A DNA stretch of 64,000 nucleotides from Acidimicrobiia bacterium (lineage in GTDB: Bacteria > Actinomycetota > Acidimicrobiia > Spongiisociales > ZC4RG35): NCBI GenBank assembly GCA_036259475.1, contig DATABS010000094.1:11801-75800 (forward strand). The letters are read 5' to 3'. The translations under genes and the position numbers were made by a program. Shown in pieces: positions 7,372 to 59,382 of this stretch. The number at the start of each line of letters is the position of its first letter. Position 1 is the first letter of the stretch. Under the pieces are notes generated by a model. The model worked only from the letters and a program-made list of their open reading frames with translations, was not told the origin of the DNA and searched no databases.

Positions 7372-7446
7372 TCGGGGGTGGTGTAATAGGCAACACGGCA
7401 GGTTCTGGCCCTGTTATTGAGGGTTCGAGTCCTTCCCCCCGAGCCA
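7372..7446 (+). tRNA. tRNA-Gln (anticodon CUG)
   Basis: hand-folded cloverleaf: acceptor TCGGGGG/CCCCCGA, D-stem GTGT/ACAC, anticodon loop TTCTGGC, T-loop TTCGAGT, encoded CCA. Confidence 0.8.
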
Positions 7447-7471: not shown

Positions 7472-7547
7472 GGCCCCGTCGTCTAGCGGCCTAGGACGCT
7501 GGCCTCTCAAGCCAGTAACGGGGGTTCGAATCCCCTCGGGGCTACCA
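7472..7547 (+). tRNA. tRNA-Glu (anticodon CUC)
   Basis: acceptor GGCCCCG/CGGGGCT, anticodon stem CTGGC/GCCAG with loop CTCTCAA, T-loop TTCGAAT, encoded CCA. Confidence 0.8.
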
Positions 7548-19323: not shown

Positions 19324-20418
19324 CTAGGCGGCCTTCTCGACGATCGGCCGCGGTGCCCGGGCGGCAACCTGCGGAGCGGAGATGGCCGGCAGAGCCGCGA
19401 GGAGAAGTGAAAGAAGGGCAACAGGGCCGGCGCCCGGCCATTCGAGCGGCTGGAGTGATGGGTTGAGTGTGGTCGGCTGCATGACACCGGCTGCCGCCAA
19501 CCCCACCGCGGCAGCTCCACCTGCCAGAGTCACCAGCCACTCGCGGCCGCCCCACGCATCGGGCCGGTAGCGAGTGCGCGCCACATTGCGGCCGAGCTGG
19601 CTGAGCCCCAGGGCAGCGAGCGCGGCGCCGGCGGTCATCGTCCCTCCCGAGACCGCGACGTCGCCTCCAGAGAGAAGCCCGAAGAGGCCGACGCAGACCG
19701 CTCCGAGTCCCAGCCAGGCCGCGAGCCCGACGATCACAGAGTGTTGCGCCCTCCCGGCGCCGGATCGGCCATAACCCCTCGAGTCCATCGACGCGGCGAG
19801 GGCGATCGACCGATGGAGGGCGTCCTCCAGGACCGGAACGAGAAGCGACCGCACGGATCTCAGGCCTCGGCCGCTCTCTCCCCTCAGACGACGGGCTCTC
19901 CGCACGCGAGCGAGCGACTCGACCAGCTGGGGGGCGAGCGAGAGTGCCACGACGGCCGAGGTGGCCACACCGGCTAGAGAGCGGGGCAGTGAGGGAAGCA
20001 GCCGCCGGGGATCGGCCAGCGAGTTGGCGGCTCCTATGACCACCACGATCGTGGCCAGGCGGAGCCCGTCGTAGAGGCCGGCCAGCAGCTCCTCGACGGT
20101 GACCGTGCCGCCCAACTCGACGCCCGCCGGAAGGCTAACTCGGGGGAGGTCCACGAGAGGCGTGCGGCCGAAGTCACCGCCCAGCAAGAGTCGGAATCCA
20201 ACCCGGATGGCGATCACCACCAACCCCACCACCAGGTACATCCGGTATCCCCCTGCCCACCGAATCTGCGTCCTACGGGATGCCACCACCAGAGAGGTCA
20301 CGGCGACGATCAGCCCGAGCAGCAGCGGATTCCTGGTCTGGGTGGCGGCGGCGACGAGTCCCAGTGCCCACAGCCACCAGGCAGCGGCATGGAGCCGTCT
20401 CGCTCGGCGCCTTCTCAT
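19324..20418 (-). CDS. ecfT: ECF transporter T component (EcfT/CbiQ family)
   Basis: CbiQ-like TM protein with conserved Arg-rich cytoplasmic loop (ARVRRARRLRG); ATG at 20418 forms ATGA with the DUF4430 gene stop. Confidence 0.8.
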   Translation of the reverse strand: MRRRRARRLHAAAWWLWALGLVAAATQTRNPLLLGLIVAVTSLVVASRRTQIRWAGGYRMYLVVGLVVIAIRVGFRLLLGGDFGRTPLVDLPRVSLPAGVELGGTVTVEELLAGLYDGLRLATIVVVIGAANSLADPRRLLPSLPRSLAGVATSAVVALSLAPQLVESLARVRRARRLRGESGRGLRSVRSLLVPVLEDALHRSIALAASMDSRGYGRSGAGRAQHSVIVGLAAWLGLGAVCVGLFGLLSGGDVAVSGGTMTAGAALAALGLSQLGRNVARTRYRPDAWGGREWLVTLAGGAAAVGLAAAGVMQPTTLNPSLQPLEWPGAGPVALLSLLLAALPAISAPQVAARAPRPIVEKAA

Positions 20419-21223: not shown

Positions 21224-22513
21224 TCAGTCCCCCAACGCCCGGAAGAGGAACGCCGCCATCTCTCCACGGCTGACGGAGTCGCCGGGGCAGAACCGGTCGT
21301 TGGCGGGCGGGTTGCAGCCTCGGGTGATGCCGGTGGCGGCGAGCCATCGGATGTCGGTGTGGAACACCGAGTCTGCGGTGTCGGTGAAGTCGCCGGACTG
21401 GCCGGTGGGCAGGGTGTCGCCGAGCGCCCGGTGGAGGAAGGCGGCCATCTGCCCGCGGGTGACGGAGTCGCCCGGGCAGAACCGGTCGTTGGCGGGCGGA
21501 TCGCATCCTCTCGTCACGTCGGAGTCGCCCAGCCAGTCGGCTTCCCGGGCGAACAGGTGATCCCAGGTGACGTCGGCAAACGGGTCGACATCCAAGAGGT
21601 GATAGGGGCCGCCGCCGAGGGCCAGCACGCCCTGCAGGGTGGCGAACCCGTTGGGCACCGTATCCGCTTCGGTGAAGCGGATACCGCCGTCGGCAGTCTG
21701 GAGCGACATGACGAAGTCCGCCGCCAGGTCGGCGGCGGCGGTCTCGCCGGCGGCGCGCAATGCCTGGCCCGCTACGCCGGCCGTGTTGGCGTTCGGATCA
21801 CCAAAGGGGCTGGCCCACGAGCCGTCGGCGTTCTGCTCACCGATGAGGAAGTCGGCCGCCAGCGCCGCGACCTGGCTGTGGCCAGCCGCAATCGCCGCCT
21901 GCAGGGCGAGGGCGGTCACGTCAACATCCGGGGCGCCGGGATCGAAGGGACTCGACCAAGACCCGTCGGAGTTCTGCTGGGCGGCGAGCCAATCGCCGGC
22001 ATCCGTCGGACTCCCATCGAGGGTGGATGCCAGGGCCAGCATTGCCAGAGAATGGGTGAACATGTCGTCGGCGAAGCTGCCGTCGGCCCGTTGGAGGGCA
22101 CGGAGCTCAGATTCCAGGTGGCGGCCCGGCAGGAAGGAGGCCGGGTCTTCGCGGTTGACGAGCACGGCCAACAGCACCTTGGCCAGGGCGCCGGGGTTGG
22201 GTGCATCGGCCGGTCCGACGTAGTCGGCGGCGCCTTCGACGAGTTCGGCCAGCGCTTGACGGGCGGACCCCTCCCTTACACCGGCTGAGGCGAGGGCGAA
22301 GATGACGTCGGTGCGGGCGGCGGCCTTGCCGAACTGGTCGAAGCCAGGCTGAGAGGAGTCGAGCTCGGCGGCTATCCAATCCGCCGCCGCGGTCGAAGCG
22401 TTCTCTTGCCCCTCATCGGCCTGTGCCAGCGAAGGCATTGCGACGGCTCCGACGAGAAGGATGGTCAGGAATACGCCTGCGAGTCGCCCGGGGAGGCGAG
22501 TGGATGAAGTCAT
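21224..22513 (-). CDS. secreted alpha/alpha-toroid (prenyltransferase/squalene-cyclase-like QW repeat) protein with two C-terminal SLH cell-wall-anchoring domains
   Basis: signal peptide MTSSTRLPGRLAGVFLTILLVGAVAMPSLAQA; four Q..(A/S)DGS(W/F) repeats about 45 aa apart; two about 55-aa C-terminal repeats F.D....F...I.WLA..GITRGC.PPANDRFCPGDSV(T/S)RG(Q/E)MAAFL.RALGD resembling SLH. Confidence 0.65.
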   Translation of the reverse strand: MTSSTRLPGRLAGVFLTILLVGAVAMPSLAQADEGQENASTAAADWIAAELDSSQPGFDQFGKAAARTDVIFALASAGVREGSARQALAELVEGAADYVGPADAPNPGALAKVLLAVLVNREDPASFLPGRHLESELRALQRADGSFADDMFTHSLAMLALASTLDGSPTDAGDWLAAQQNSDGSWSSPFDPGAPDVDVTALALQAAIAAGHSQVAALAADFLIGEQNADGSWASPFGDPNANTAGVAGQALRAAGETAAADLAADFVMSLQTADGGIRFTEADTVPNGFATLQGVLALGGGPYHLLDVDPFADVTWDHLFAREADWLGDSDVTRGCDPPANDRFCPGDSVTRGQMAAFLHRALGDTLPTGQSGDFTDTADSVFHTDIRWLAATGITRGCNPPANDRFCPGDSVSRGEMAAFLFRALGD

Positions 22514-22555
22514 GTCGATACGGTGTCCTTCCTCTCGCGGTCTGGTTAGCGACCC

Positions 22556-22790
22556 AGCGACGAGGTGGTTCCGATCGACGGTCCGCCGAAGGCGGTGCTG
22601 GTCGGGCTTTCGTCCCGGGCCCCGCCCGTAGACCTCGACGGGTTCGATGGAGCCGCAGCCATGTCTGGTATCCCGGCTCGCCGTCCCATTGAGACGGCCT
22701 ACGGTTGCGGGTCAGCGCCGGATTTCGACCGGCTTCCCCAGACAGGGCCCGATTCGGTTGTCACCCGGACCCTACCACCCCCGCGTCCCG
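22556..22790 (-). ncRNA. cobalamin (B12) riboswitch in the 5' leader of the SLH/DUF4430/ECF operon
   Basis: minus-strand core GGGGAAGCCGGTCGAAATCCGGCGCTGACCCGCAACCGTAGG (22738-22699) matches the Cbl riboswitch core AGGGAA..GGUGAAAAUCC...GCUG.CCCGCAACUGUAA; downstream GGGACGGCGAGCCGGGATACC resembles the B12-box; possible anti-SD CCTCGTCGC pairing with GCGAGAGG before the ATG at 22513. Confidence 0.6.
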
Positions 22791-35870: not shown

Positions 35871-35943
35871 GGCCCCGTCGTCCAGCGGTCTAGGACGCCG
35901 GCCTTTCAAGCCGGTAACGCGGGTTCGAATCCCGTCGGGGCTA
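35871..35943 (+). tRNA. tRNA-Glu (anticodon UUC)
   Basis: acceptor GGCCCCG/CGGGGCT, anticodon stem CCGGC/GCCGG with loop CTTTCAA, T-loop TTCGAAT; CCA not encoded. Confidence 0.8.
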
Positions 35944-58257: not shown

Positions 58258-59382
58258 TCATCCCGGCTCGTAGCCCCACACGTCGGAGGCCACCTCGACG
58301 GTGCGGCCTAGCTTGCGCCACTGGTCGTCGGGTTCGATCGTGTTGCCGTGAGCGGTGGAAGAGAACCCGCATTGGTGGCTGAGGCACAGCTGCTCGAGGG
58401 GCGCATATTGGGCCGCCTCGTCGATGCGCCGCTTCACCTCGTCGGCGTCCTCGACCCGAGCGTGCTTGGAGCTCATCAGACCCAGTACCACCGTTTTTCC
58501 TTCCGGTAGGAAGCGCAGGGGCGCGAAGTCGCCCGACCGCTCGTCGTCGTACTCGAGGAAGAAGCCGTCGACCTCCATCTCGTTGAAAAGGGTCTCGGCG
58601 ACCGGTTCGTAGCCTCCCTGTGACACCCAGGCGCTCTGGAAGTTTCCCCGGCACAGGTGAACGCAGGCCACCATGTCGTCGGGACGGCCTTTGATGGCGT
58701 CGTTGATGAGGCGGCAGTAGAGGCGCGTGAGATCGTCGGGGTCGTCGCCCCGGGCGGCGGTGCGTTCCCGCACTTCGGGGTCACAGAGGTAGGCGAGGTT
58801 GGTGTCGTCCAACTGGACGTACGTGCAACCCCGGGAGGCCAGATCGGCGATCTCCTCCCGATAAGCGGCCGTGAGGTCGTCGAAGAACTGGTCGAGATCG
58901 GGATAGATGTCCTCGCCTATCGCCTTGCGCCCGCCCCGGAAATGGAGCATCGAGGGTGCCGGGATGCATACCTTGGGGGTGCGCGTGACCTGGGAGGCGA
59001 GAAAGTCGAAATCGTCGCCCTGGATGGGATGGGAGTGGCGGATCGGGGCGTCGACCAGCATCGTTGGGGGCTTGAACTCGATCTCGGTGCCGTTGTCGCG
59101 CTTGAACTTCGCCAGGAAGTCTCCCTCGGTCACGGTCACACCGTCGAGCTGTTGGAGAAAGTCGACGTGGAACATGAAGCGTCGGAACTCGCCGTCGGTG
59201 ATGCCCCGAAGCCCGACGTCTTCCTGTCTCTTGACCACCTCTGCGATCGCCTGATCCTCCACGCCGCGCAATTCCTCCGGTTCGATCACACCTGTCTCGT
59301 GTCTCTCCCGGGCGTCGATGACGGAGGGCGGTCGCAGGAAGCTCCCAACATGGTCGGCTCGGAATGGCGGTCGTTCTGTCAC
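58258..59382 (-). CDS. cobalamin-independent methionine synthase (MetE) C-terminal-domain-like methyltransferase
   Basis: about 374 aa single-domain UROD/MetE-like pattern (RADHVGSFLRPP, conserved Zn-site region HLCRGNF). Confidence 0.7.
   Translation of the reverse strand: MTERPPFRADHVGSFLRPPSVIDARERHETGVIEPEELRGVEDQAIAEVVKRQEDVGLRGITDGEFRRFMFHVDFLQQLDGVTVTEGDFLAKFKRDNGTEIEFKPPTMLVDAPIRHSHPIQGDDFDFLASQVTRTPKVCIPAPSMLHFRGGRKAIGEDIYPDLDQFFDDLTAAYREEIADLASRGCTYVQLDDTNLAYLCDPEVRERTAARGDDPDDLTRLYCRLINDAIKGRPDDMVACVHLCRGNFQSAWVSQGGYEPVAETLFNEMEVDGFFLEYDDERSGDFAPLRFLPEGKTVVLGLMSSKHARVEDADEVKRRIDEAAQYAPLEQLCLSHQCGFSSTAHGNTIEPDDQWRKLGRTVEVASDVWGYEPG

Follow-up and report, generated by a model that had tools for sequence, protein, structure and literature searches.

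A compact, class-II-like cobalamin riboswitch ahead of a putative corrinoid-scavenging ECF transporter operon in Actinomycetota

The window (the whole 64 kb stretch of DNA analysed here) carries on its minus strand an RNA that is a member of the cobalamin riboswitch family (RF00174, clan CL00101). We are fairly confident that it is a functional, compact, class-II-like corrinoid riboswitch, most likely repressing a five-gene corrinoid-scavenging operon when B12 is sufficient. The riboswitch type and the operon layout are both of previously described kinds. The features discussed below are collected in Table 1.

Table 1. Riboswitch, promoter and operon features in window coordinates; percentages are taken from 69 homologous leaders in an alignment fitted to the model, and are thereby biased towards the structure
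Feature	Position	Strand	Remarks
Putative -10 promoter hexamer	22769..22774	-	TAGGGT; inferred
Cobalamin aptamer, four-way junction	22657..22749	-	RF00174 45.8 bits; R1 156 bits; covariation in 69 leaders
P1/P3	22749-22738 with 22668-22657	-	helix assigned by hand and with ViennaRNA
P4 hairpin	22733-22717	-	100% paired
P5/L5	22714-22706	-	
Loop L5 (ACCCG)	22708..22712	-	contributes CCCG (22711-22708) to the kissing loop from the aptamer side
P6	22704-22673	-	94-100% paired
P13 hairpin, expression platform	22618..22654	-	adjoins the 3' end of the aptamer; conserved in almost all homologous leaders
P13 outer helix	22654-22649 with 22623-22618	-	GGCUCC with GGGGCC
P13 inner stem	22642-22639 with 22628-22625	-	CCCG with CGGG
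Loop L13	22638-22629	-	UCGAGGUCUA
UUCG-capped spacer hairpin	22583..22596	-	read in the window; not conserved
SD-sequestering hairpin, predicted	22514..22579	-	ViennaRNA minimum-energy fold; RNAalifold; ends one base before ATG 22513
Anti-SD	22565-22557	-	CCTCGTCGC / CCUCGUCGC; pairs with GCGAGAGG (22538-22531)
SD	22536-22526	-	GAGAGGAAGGA
Gene 1, 429 aa	21224..22513	-	signal peptide, alpha/alpha-toroid (transcobalamin alpha-domain-like), two C-terminal SLH-like repeats
Gene 2, 267 aa	20415..21218	-	GTG start; signal peptide, ∼120 aa beta-grasp with four conserved Cys, Thr/Ser/Pro-rich linker, C-terminal membrane anchor
Gene 3, EcfT/CbiQ transmembrane component	19324..20418	-	Pfam CbiQ (PF02361) 40.3 bits, cut-off 25; ATG overlaps gene 2 stop (ATGA)
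Gene 4, fused EcfA-EcfA' double ATPase, 532 aa	17725..19323	-	two ABC_tran domains, 161 bits
Gene 5, putative ECF S component, 272 aa	16910..17728	-	ATG overlaps gene 4 stop (ATGA)

The Rfam cobalamin riboswitch model (RF00174) matched positions 22794-22646 of the minus strand over model positions 1-189, with an E value of 2.6e-8 and a score of 45.8 bits against a gathering score of 31.5 bits, the check that the preliminary description had named; this was the sole riboswitch match within the window. The near-textbook cobalamin core that had been read on the minus strand is present with all the strings quoted for it, except that the 42-nt core, GGGGAAGCCGGTCGAAATCCGGCGCTGACCCGCAACCGTAGG, lies at 22739-22698, one base further at each end than the 22738-22699 given before. 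It is followed at 22687-22667 by GGGACGGCGAGCCGGGATACC, which includes the B12 box, and the string previously called B12-box-like is indeed the box (GCGAGCCGGGAUACCAGAC, 22681-22663), which shows two departures from the Rfam consensus (CCGGGAUACC vs CCAGGAGACC). The conserved core is thus complete at 22738-22663, with the GGGAA of J3/4, the P4 hairpin, L5 with its CCCG, and the B12 box in J6/3, and these elements are invariant or nearly so in 54-69 homologous leaders.

The RF00174 score is nevertheless modest, the 5' third of the model is poorly aligned, and the model's 60-nt P6 extension shrinks to 10 nt, so the match might be taken for a decayed or chance resemblance without a regulatory role. 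We consider this exceedingly improbable, given the E value and the compensatory changes found in the element across Acidimicrobiia, Micrococcales, Propionibacteriales, Pseudonocardiales, Micromonosporales and Streptomycetales. A custom model, R1, built from the aptamer and the P13 hairpin, scored 156 bits on the window leader and, in dozens of further genomes, found full-length matches (77-156 bits) in front of the same operon; these matches, together with the covariation of the kissing loop and the helices, effectively refute the chance reading already. The low RF00174 score is explained by the compact architecture and by overlap of the promoter with the 5' end of the model.

The aptamer is compact and class-II-like. 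The P6 extension with a GCCACUG internal loop, a feature of the AdoCbl-selective class I, is absent: a 10-nt hairpin loop stands in for the 60-nt model segment, and P6 is a simple 3 + 6 bp hairpin. The architecture is therefore class-II-like. There is also no P2 branch. Across 69 leaders, 88.3% of cells were paired compared with 74% after shuffling, and none of 500 shuffles reached the observed 88.3%. The pairs were counted in an alignment fitted to the model, so that the counts lean towards the structure. When the partners were slid, pairing dropped to 36-44%, and double-sided changes were found at 29 of the 41 pairs. Proximal P3 was 97.5% paired, and in proximal P3, P4 and P6 many pairs had changes on both sides, while P5 is invariant and hence uninformative. 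Distal P1 (54-82% paired) lies in noisy alignment, and the outer P13 helix (63-70% paired) aligns less cleanly. An independent analysis with RNAalifold on a MAFFT alignment supported P4 and P6. The P1-P6 covariation whose absence from related leaders would have counted against the preliminary description is thus present.

The junction helices, the P13 hairpin and the L5-L13 kissing loop are conserved and covarying, and the P13 kissing-loop hairpin, which the preliminary description overlooked, is the most conserved element after the aptamer. In previously characterized riboswitches, the L5 consensus is UCCCG, which pairs with L13 (PMC10327014). CCCG is found in L5 in 62 of 69 leaders, and the variants CCUG and UCCG co-occur with matching changes in L13. 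The kissing loop consists of four pairs, made with L5 by C22637, G22636, G22634 and G22633, and 99.6% of cells were paired; two of the pairs are compensatory, in 5 and 2 sequences, and A22635 is a one-base bulge whose identity varies among leaders. The L5/L13 combinations were CCCG with CG-N-GG (61 leaders), CCUG with CA-N-GG (5), UCCG with CG-A-GA (2), and a single mismatch. Within the P13 inner stem, 92.6% of cells were paired and three of four pairs had changes on both sides. A GCCGG-UCGAAAU-CCGGC hairpin was considered as an alternative L5 and rejected, as it showed no covariation with the P13 loop and L5 is placed at CCCG in PMC10327014.

The leader length of 283 nt before the ATG at 22513 agrees with that of the intergenic region between pgpA and gene 1 (22796-22514). 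In 47 of 69 homologous leaders, the GGGAA core is preceded at a distance of 24-69 nt by a TANNNT hexamer, which reads TATGGT or TAGTGT in the closest relatives, with an unchanged spacing of 35-37 nt; a scan for E. coli-type sigma-70 promoters found nothing. Judged from the sequence, the ∼30 nt at the 5' end of the RF00174 match are probably promoter, and the transcript probably starts ∼13 nt before P1. Of the range 22556-22790 previously assigned to the riboswitch, the 5' part (∼22790-22765) is thus probably promoter rather than RNA. The Rfam-aligned 5' strand of P1/P2 (22786-22768) was likewise rejected, since the conserved -10-like hexamer falls within it and a better P1/P3 helix, of 12 bp, is available further inside. 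We also set aside a 38-codon upstream ORF that runs from ATG 22662 to TAA 22546 across P13 and the anti-SD. Its start codon is missing from two close relatives (L083 and L085), start codons after the GGAG of P13 are sporadic among leaders, and the ORF is probably a product of chance in GC-rich DNA.

Downstream of P13, the SD reported upstream of ATG 22513 (gagaggaagga) was located at 22536-22526, and its pairing with the anti-SD holds up well: in an RNAalifold analysis of the window and three close relatives (L081, L083 and L085), the helix was kept despite the differing anti-SD sequences CCUCGUCGC, CCCCUCG and CCUUCCCUC. The UUCG-capped helix was placed exactly at 22596-22583 in the preliminary description, but it is not a conserved feature, as a different hairpin occupies its place in L081 and it is deleted from L083 and L085. 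Folding with and without aptamer constraints, as had been suggested, predicted the SD hairpin both in the free state and under bound-state constraints (ViennaRNA). In many lineages a long-range GAGCGG/CCGCUC helix beside the SD is clear, with a compensatory UUGCGG/CCGCAA version in L002; in the window it is only partial, and for that reason it was left out of the window model. The CCGGAC that follows P13 was considered as an anti-aptamer pairing with the 3' strand of P4 and rejected, because in Knoellia-type leaders it is, by our own reading, better placed in a pairing just after the SD.

These elements suggest the following sequence of events. Transcription would start near 22762-22760 from the -10 element at 22774-22769, and the four-way junction would bind a corrinoid. 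The CCCG of L5 (22711-22708) would then pair with L13 through the four contacts described above, with A22635 bulged, locking P13. With P13 locked, the anti-SD (22565-22557) would hold the SD (22536-22526) in the hairpin at 22579-22514, leaving gene 1 untranslated. Expression of genes 2 to 5, which are joined by stop and start codons that overlap or abut, would fall with that of gene 1, possibly with help from Rho termination or mRNA decay. Without ligand, P13 would be unlocked, and the L13 segment GUCGAGGU (22639-22632) would pair with ACCUCGUC (22566-22559), freeing the SD. The step from P13 to the SD hairpin is one that we infer rather than one that is established: in ViennaRNA, the pairing suggested for the ligand-free state comes out ∼5 kcal/mol less stable than the minimum-energy fold of the expression platform, and the complementarity between L13 and the anti-SD, which we read in the window and L081, is absent from L083 and L085.

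It is conceivable, but in our judgment rather unlikely, that the riboswitch is real and yet works chiefly by Rho-dependent termination, or by destabilising the mRNA, within the ∼100-nt spacer and the early part of gene 1, with occlusion of the SD being secondary or constitutive. Such a mode would fit the prediction of the SD hairpin whatever the ligand state, the outcome of a scan for intrinsic terminators, which found none, and the position of the SD, which in the window lies ∼80 nt beyond P13 in a separate hairpin. In Lentzea-type leaders (L012, L016, L019, L023 and L024), by contrast, P13 provides the SD (GGAGG) directly as its 3' strand and a GTG start follows 6-7 nt later, an arrangement known from env8/btuB (PMC10327014), and this direct sequestration in other lineages argues for translational control, as does the maintenance of the anti-SD/SD helix by changed sequences in close relatives. 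Moreover, the spacer shows no marked C enrichment or G depletion (38 C vs 33 G in 106 nt). The two modes are not mutually exclusive, and repression by SD occlusion remains the reading that we prefer.

Among known riboswitches, the class II type (env8HyCbl type, RF01689) is architecturally closest, sharing the GGGAA of J3/4, P4, the CCCG of L5, P6 and the B12 box in J6/3, as well as the bulged L5-L13 kissing loop that stabilises a P13 carrying or controlling the ribosome-binding site. The window differs from RF00174 and RF01689 systems in having neither the P6 extension with GCCACUG nor the P2 branch, and in the separate hairpin for its distant SD. The B12 riboswitches of Mycobacterium tuberculosis metE and ppe2 are translational OFF switches with TIR, anti-TIR and anti-anti-TIR elements, which L13 overlaps or flanks (PMC11260477). 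They resemble the window in being actinobacterial, in their translational OFF logic and in having no intrinsic terminator; however, the genes that they control are different, and they rely on translated upstream ORFs, whereas the sole upstream ORF of the window (22662-22546) is not conserved in close relatives.

The operon comprises five genes on the minus strand, not six as first counted, and ends against the convergent serA. Domain matches confirmed that it encodes surface proteins and an ECF transporter, and it is not unannotatable, as had been claimed, since EcfT, the ATPases and a likely S component can be recognised and the products of genes 1 and 2 resolve by structure prediction. The gene 4 product matched TIGR04521 and TIGR04520 (ECF_ATPase_2 and ECF_ATPase_1) with 279 and 274 bits, below the equivalog cut-offs of 330 and 315. 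The gene 5 product matched Pfam ECF_trnsprt (PF12822) below threshold (26 bits, cut-off 30.7). Its homologues number more than 7000 and go under the name ECF transporter S component at NCBI/JGI, many of them with a precomputed PF12822 match, and its gene follows the ATPase gene, the position expected for an S component.

The two exported products are, by predicted fold, the alpha and beta halves of transcobalamin. For gene 1, Pfam matches to SQHop_cyclase_N/C and SLH were sub-threshold, the NCBIfam SCO2321_fam match reached 47.5 bits (cut-off 300), a literature search for SCO2321 returned nothing relevant, and the best PDB sequence match was to squalene-hopene cyclase repeats (E 6e-9). The product is, however, 56% identical to the alpha domain of a fused orthologue (P0134) whose model comprises a toroid and a beta domain, and the top 10 PDB matches of that model are transcobalamin, over ∼440 columns. 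The beta-grasp domain of gene 2, whose family has 4587 representatives at 50% identity, qualifies for the transcobalamin clade. The Pfam transcobalamin-type cobalamin-binding model did not match gene 1 at E<=0.01 or gene 2 at E<=10 in a set of models without PF28005; some gene 2 homologues carry a precomputed PF28005 match. The likeness to human transcobalamin, intrinsic factor and haptocorrin lies in the predicted two-domain clamp of alpha6/alpha6 toroid and beta-grasp, at 13-17% identity and with the window domains as separate, cell-anchored proteins. These transcobalamin-like folds strengthen the earlier assignment of the operon to corrinoids. In the proposed system, the SLH-anchored toroid of gene 1 and the membrane-anchored beta-grasp of gene 2 would clamp the corrinoid at the surface, as transcobalamin does, and the S component would receive it for import driven by ATP.

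B12 riboswitches are also known to control ECF transporters for cobalt, of the CbiMNQO type. The operon might import some other cargo, such as haem, another tetrapyrrole, a corrinoid precursor like cobinamide, or cobalt, with the riboswitch reporting the end product only. The EcfT found here matches the CbiQ family, which Pfam terms 'cobalt transport', and no similarity between the S component and solved S components could be detected: a search with the gene 5 product found no relative among PDB sequences at E<=10, CbrT included. The split alpha/beta transcobalamin-like proteins of the Lactobacillus sakei ECF-like operon lsa1836-1840 have, furthermore, been linked to haem uptake and not to B12 (10.1101/864751). 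The operon has no product that matched CbiM or CbiN, the components of a CbiMNQO cobalt transporter, in Pfam or NCBIfam. Secreted transcobalamin-like beta-grasp and toroid proteins encoded in CbiO/CbiQ operons have been predicted to be B12 scavengers (PMC1796856). We regard a different cargo as improbable and favour corrinoid scavenging.

The ECF-type B12 importer ECF-CbrT of Lactobacillus delbrueckii, which takes up cobalamin and cobinamide (PMC5997447), likewise combines EcfT, two ATPase domains and an S component in a B12-related context. That importer is of group II and draws on a shared ECF module, and surface binding proteins have not been described for it, whereas the window encodes a dedicated (group I-like) system with fused ATPases, a larger S component of 272 aa, and two surface proteins. 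Secreted or anchored beta-grasp and toroid proteins, either split between two genes or fused in one order or the other, together with ECF-type ATPase and T genes, are shared with the systems of PMC1796856 and with L. sakei Lsa1839/Lsa1840, from which the window differs in a domain too divergent for the Pfam models searched and in its anchors, the SLH repeats and the C-terminal membrane helix.

The riboswitch is tied to this operon across Actinomycetota. A same-strand riboswitch match was found upstream of the S-component gene at 65 of 80 related loci, and when at least 5 kb of upstream sequence was available, only 2 of 67 loci (L044 and L047) lacked one. Gene order is conserved among related loci, and operon families occur in Acidimicrobiia, Streptomyces, Micromonospora, Nocardioides and many uncultured soil and water actinobacteria. 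The window has the split form of the surface proteins; toroid and beta-grasp are elsewhere fused in both orders (L083/L085 and P0183), and a toroid fused to the S component also occurs. Such independent fusions suggest that the receptor may physically hand its cargo to the S component.

The RF00174 gathering score was missed by two of seven homologous leaders (L004 and L034), and the leader of L016 scored better with RF01689 than with RF00174. Since RF00174 at its gathering score misses some leaders, B12 regulons in high-GC actinobacteria are probably under-annotated. The 2007 survey that described the transcobalamin-like clade (Burroughs et al., PMC1796856) reported it from low-GC Gram-positives, planctomycetes and euryarchaea but not from Actinobacteria, and the present system extends its prediction of bacterial transcobalamin-like B12 scavengers to Actinomycetota, with the near-universal riboswitch linkage providing independent regulatory evidence for scavenging. 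For the operon itself, the riboswitch gives a ligand and a role, corrinoid scavenging, to a locus whose first two products are without family annotation.

To our knowledge, ECF transporters are usually described as independent of a solute-binding protein, and the system offers a tractable case for whether they can use surface binding proteins. We see the chances as evenly balanced that Actinomycetota widely use an ECF importer dependent on a two-part extracytoplasmic transcobalamin-like receptor, an SLH-anchored toroid and a membrane-anchored beta-grasp, which would feed an unusually large S component, with the whole system under a minimal, promoter-proximal, class-II-like subclass of B12 riboswitches that Rfam picks up only marginally.

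When the entire window was scanned with Rfam 15 at gathering thresholds, one riboswitch and three tRNAs (two of them in tandem) were returned. The riboswitch, a match to the Cobalamin family (RF00174) in the leader of a minus-strand operon, scored 45.8 bits against a gathering score of 31.5. The first refuting outcome named in the preliminary description, no RF00174 hit above that score, did not occur. The cobalamin riboswitch it proposed is confirmed as an observation and supported as an interpretation, although corrections are needed. All the strings it quoted were found on the minus strand, downstream of the pgpA stop (22797) and ahead of the ATG at 22513, and its 42-nt core is present, but spans 22739-22698, each end having been placed one base off. 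The score is modest because only 10 nt stand for the model's 60-nt P6 extension in the Rfam alignment, and because a promoter-like stretch lies under the model's 5' strand. In architecture the RNA is compact and class-II-like, and the riboswitch family to which it belongs is well known.

Features of the operon, its leader and the rest of the window (window positions)
Feature	Position	Strand	Remarks
RF00174 match	22794-22646	-	E 2.6e-8; model positions 1-189
TANNNT hexamer TAGGGT	22774-22769	-	in Rfam-aligned distal P1/P2 5' strand
L5 (aptamer loop) ACCCG	22712-22708	-	
GGGACGGCGAGCCGGGATACC	22687-22667	-	
38-codon ORF	22662-22546	-	ATG within P1/P3 3' strand; TAA 8 nt before SD region
L13 (platform loop) UCGAGGUCUA	22638-22629	-	
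UUCG hairpin	22596-22583	-	
Predicted SD hairpin	22579-22514	-	
CCTCGTCGC	22565-22557	-	
GCGAGAGG	22538-22531	-	
Shine-Dalgarno (SD)	22536-22526	-	
Gene 1	22513-21224	-	429 aa; signal peptide, squalene-cyclase/prenyltransferase-type alpha/alpha-toroid repeats, two SLH-like repeats
Gene 2	21218-20415	-	267 aa, GTG start; signal peptide, ~120-aa domain, Thr/Ser/Pro-rich linker, C-terminal membrane helix
Gene 3	20418-19324	-	EcfT/CbiQ
Gene 4	19323-17725	-	fused double ABC ATPase, ECF type
Gene 5	17728-16910	-	ECF S component, 272 aa
Meth_synt_2 gene	58258-59382	-	short 374-aa protein, catalytic domain alone of cobalamin-independent methionine synthase
tRNA genes	7372-7443, 7472-7544, 35871-35943	+	

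The genes behind this leader are tightly packed, with ATGA overlaps at the gene 2/3 and 4/5 junctions and gene 3 abutting gene 4. Since the operon stops where its 3' end meets the convergent serA, it holds five genes, not the six counted previously. Family searches gave no match for the ~120-aa domain of gene 2 and found neither CbiM nor CbiN among the operon products. The gene 5 product is 100% identical to a protein of an Acidimicrobiia metagenome-assembled genome and belongs to a family of >7000 members. Elsewhere in the window, the Rfam scan detected no riboswitch near the Meth_synt_2 gene.

To follow the RNA and the operon across Actinomycetota, 80 loci were fetched through the S-component alignment, with contigs from one genome per species, covering Acidimicrobiia, Micrococcales, Propionibacteriales, Pseudonocardiales, Micromonosporales, Streptomycetales and others. 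By tblastn, most share the gene order toroid protein, gene 2-like protein, EcfT, double ATPase, S component, with additional gene 2-like copies in Streptomyces and Kitasatospora. A regular-expression search for the cobalamin core located, in ~50 loci, a riboswitch on the same strand as the S gene and 3.5-7.5 kb ahead of it. When seven loci were run against Rfam, four operon leaders matched RF00174 at 33-39 bits, and the L016 leader scored higher on AdoCbl-II (RF01689). A custom covariance model of the aptamer and following hairpin (15 leaders, 159 positions) matched upstream of the operon in 65/80 loci, mostly at full length, with three matches truncated by the contig end. Of the loci lacking a match, thirteen offer <4 kb of upstream sequence; L044 and L047 are the only two with sufficient flank. 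Two operon leaders below the RF00174 gathering score (L004, 4450-4607; L034, 3200-3356) reached 128 and 103 bits with the custom model, and annotations of actinobacterial genomes are likely to miss members of this compact subclass. The aptamer and P13 hairpin module also occurs in 2-3 copies upstream of adjacent gene 2-like or toroid genes in Streptomyces, Kitasatospora, Embleya and Micromonospora (L034 613-772 and 3200-3356; L032 363-526, 4302-4467 and 12509-12671; also L048, L073, L025 and L059). In one Acidimicrobiia genome, a bacterial large SRP RNA lies just 3' of the homologous operon (L002, 12653-12924, minus strand).

Inspection of the leaders showed that the aptamer junction is closed by a 12-bp P1/P3 helix with one internal mismatch (22749-22738 with 22668-22657), which changes in compensatory fashion between lineages (CCGCGCACAGUGGG with CCCGCUGCGCGCGG in L012; CCGCAUGCCGCGGG with CCCGUGGCGUGCGG in L016). 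The 69 strongest covariance-model matches were then aligned to the model and the structure, pseudoknot included, was evaluated. Paired cells amounted to 88.3%, compared with 73.9% in 500 column shuffles, none of which (0/500) reached the observed value, in an alignment whose fitting to the model biases these counts in favour of the structure. Sliding the partners by 1-3 columns left 36-44% of cells paired, and 29/41 pairs carried changes on both sides. Proximal P3 (97.5% paired), P4 (100%), P6 (94-100%) and the inner P13 stem (92.6%) were well supported, P5 was invariant, and distal P1 (54-82%) and the outer P13 helix (63-70%) were noisier. Covariation in P4 and P6 also appeared in an independent MAFFT/RNAalifold analysis. 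In 47 of the 69 leaders a TANNNT hexamer precedes the core by 24-69 nt; among the closest relatives of the window the distance is 35-37 nt. We infer that TAGGGT would be the -10 element, with RNA starting near 22762-22760; the range first assigned to the riboswitch does contain the aptamer, but the aptamer is shorter and a probable promoter lies inside that range.

Immediately past the aptamer, almost all leaders carry GGCUCC, 5-8 nt, a 3-6 bp stem with a loop beginning YCG-N-GG, and GGAGCC. In corrinoid riboswitches L5 is a UCCCG loop that pairs with L13 of the expression platform, stabilising P13 and the ribosome-binding-site hairpin; in env8 the kissing loop is bulged (PMC10327014). The corresponding pairs in the window are C22711-G22633, C22710-G22634, C22709-G22636 and G22708-C22637, with A22635 bulged. 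Among the 69 leaders, L5 CCCG occurs with L13 CG(A/U/C)GG in 61, CCUG with CA(U/C)GG in 5 and UCCG with CGAGA in 2, with one mismatch; compensatory change is thus seen at two of the four kissing pairs, and only the bulged base varies freely in the kissing loop. The CCUG variant (L13 CA-N-GG) is found in some of the multi-copy modules. P13 with its kissing loop is the key conserved platform element.

In Lentzea-type leaders the SD (GGAGG) is the P13 3' strand itself, with a GTG start 6-7 nt downstream, which is the classical layout for repression via SD occlusion. The window SD lies farther downstream, inside a hairpin in which CCUCGUCGC (22565-22557) is predicted to pair with GCGAGAGG. ViennaRNA formed this hairpin in the free fold and the bound-state-constrained fold alike, and RNAalifold, run on the window together with its syntenic relatives L081, L083 and L085, kept it despite differing anti-SD sequences, bearing out the anti-SD pairing suggested earlier. 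The UUCG hairpin, noted previously, is present in the window but not conserved in relatives. The L13 segment GUCGAGGU (22639-22632) could pair with ACCUCGUC (22566-22559). L13 would then act as an anti-anti-SD, a role suggested in M. tuberculosis metE (PMC11260477); this alternative pairing is ~5 kcal/mol less stable than the platform's minimum-energy fold (ViennaRNA), and the complementarity is absent in L083 and L085. No intrinsic terminator is present, and regulation may have a Rho-dependent component. The 38-codon ORF spans P13 and the anti-SD and resembles riboswitch-embedded upstream ORFs of M. tuberculosis, and is probably a chance product of GC-rich DNA, because neither L083 nor L085 has an equivalent start codon. 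A long-range helix, in which GAGCGG between P1 and P13 pairs with CCGCUC directly 5' of the SD, occurs ~50-80 nt past P13 in leaders L009, L004, L015, L070, L052, L014, L064, L045 and L002, the last in the compensatory form UUGCGG/CCGCAA; it is partial in the window (CUGCGG/CCGCGAG). In Knoellia-type leaders, CCGGACAGCC 3' of P13 also pairs with GGCUGUCC just past the SD.

In place of genes 1 and 2, L083 and L085, syntenic with the window from pgpA through serA, carry one 510-aa gene. Over residues 1-299 its product shares 56% identity with the gene 1 toroid, and a gene 2-like domain and membrane anchor come after. P0134, a 93%-identical cluster representative, was modelled with AlphaFold2 from a 66-sequence alignment (mean pLDDT 84.6; toroid >95; beta domain 84-93). 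The ten best Foldseek matches in the PDB were transcobalamins of human, bovine or rat origin (E 3e-9 to 1.6e-7, ~440 aligned columns), with terpene cyclases and prenyltransferases ranking below and matching the toroid alone. The global rmsd against transcobalamin is high because the relative orientation of the two domains differs. Natural fusions of a prenyltransferase-like alpha/alpha toroid to an ECF S component (P0205, P0209, P0210) suggest that surface receptor and transporter may be directly linked physically. A precomputed Pfam match, PF28005.1, is present in gene 2 homologues P0128-P0130, P0145, P0183, P0186 and P0188.

Among soluble-ligand-binding beta-grasp domains, Burroughs et al. 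(2007; PMC1796856) described a bacterial transcobalamin-like clade whose proteins often carry an alpha/alpha toroid, fused on either side, are secreted or surface-anchored, are encoded beside CbiO-like ATPases and CbiQ-like membrane proteins, and were predicted to scavenge B12. That clade was reported from low-GC Gram-positives, planctomycetes and euryarchaea, whereas the operon studied here is a new, divergent actinobacterial member of the predicted system; the riboswitch type and the operon concept are both already in the literature. An ECF-like operon of Lactobacillus sakei with split alpha/beta transcobalamin-like proteins has been linked experimentally to haem uptake (10.1101/864751), and the characterised B12 importer ECF-CbrT works without transcobalamin-like accessory proteins (PMC5997447); no sequence similarity was detectable between gene 5 and the ECF-CbrT S component. 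The case for a corrinoid substrate, as opposed to haem or cobalt, comes mainly from the linkage to the riboswitch. Across Actinomycetota, an ECF transporter may work with a surface transcobalamin-like receptor.
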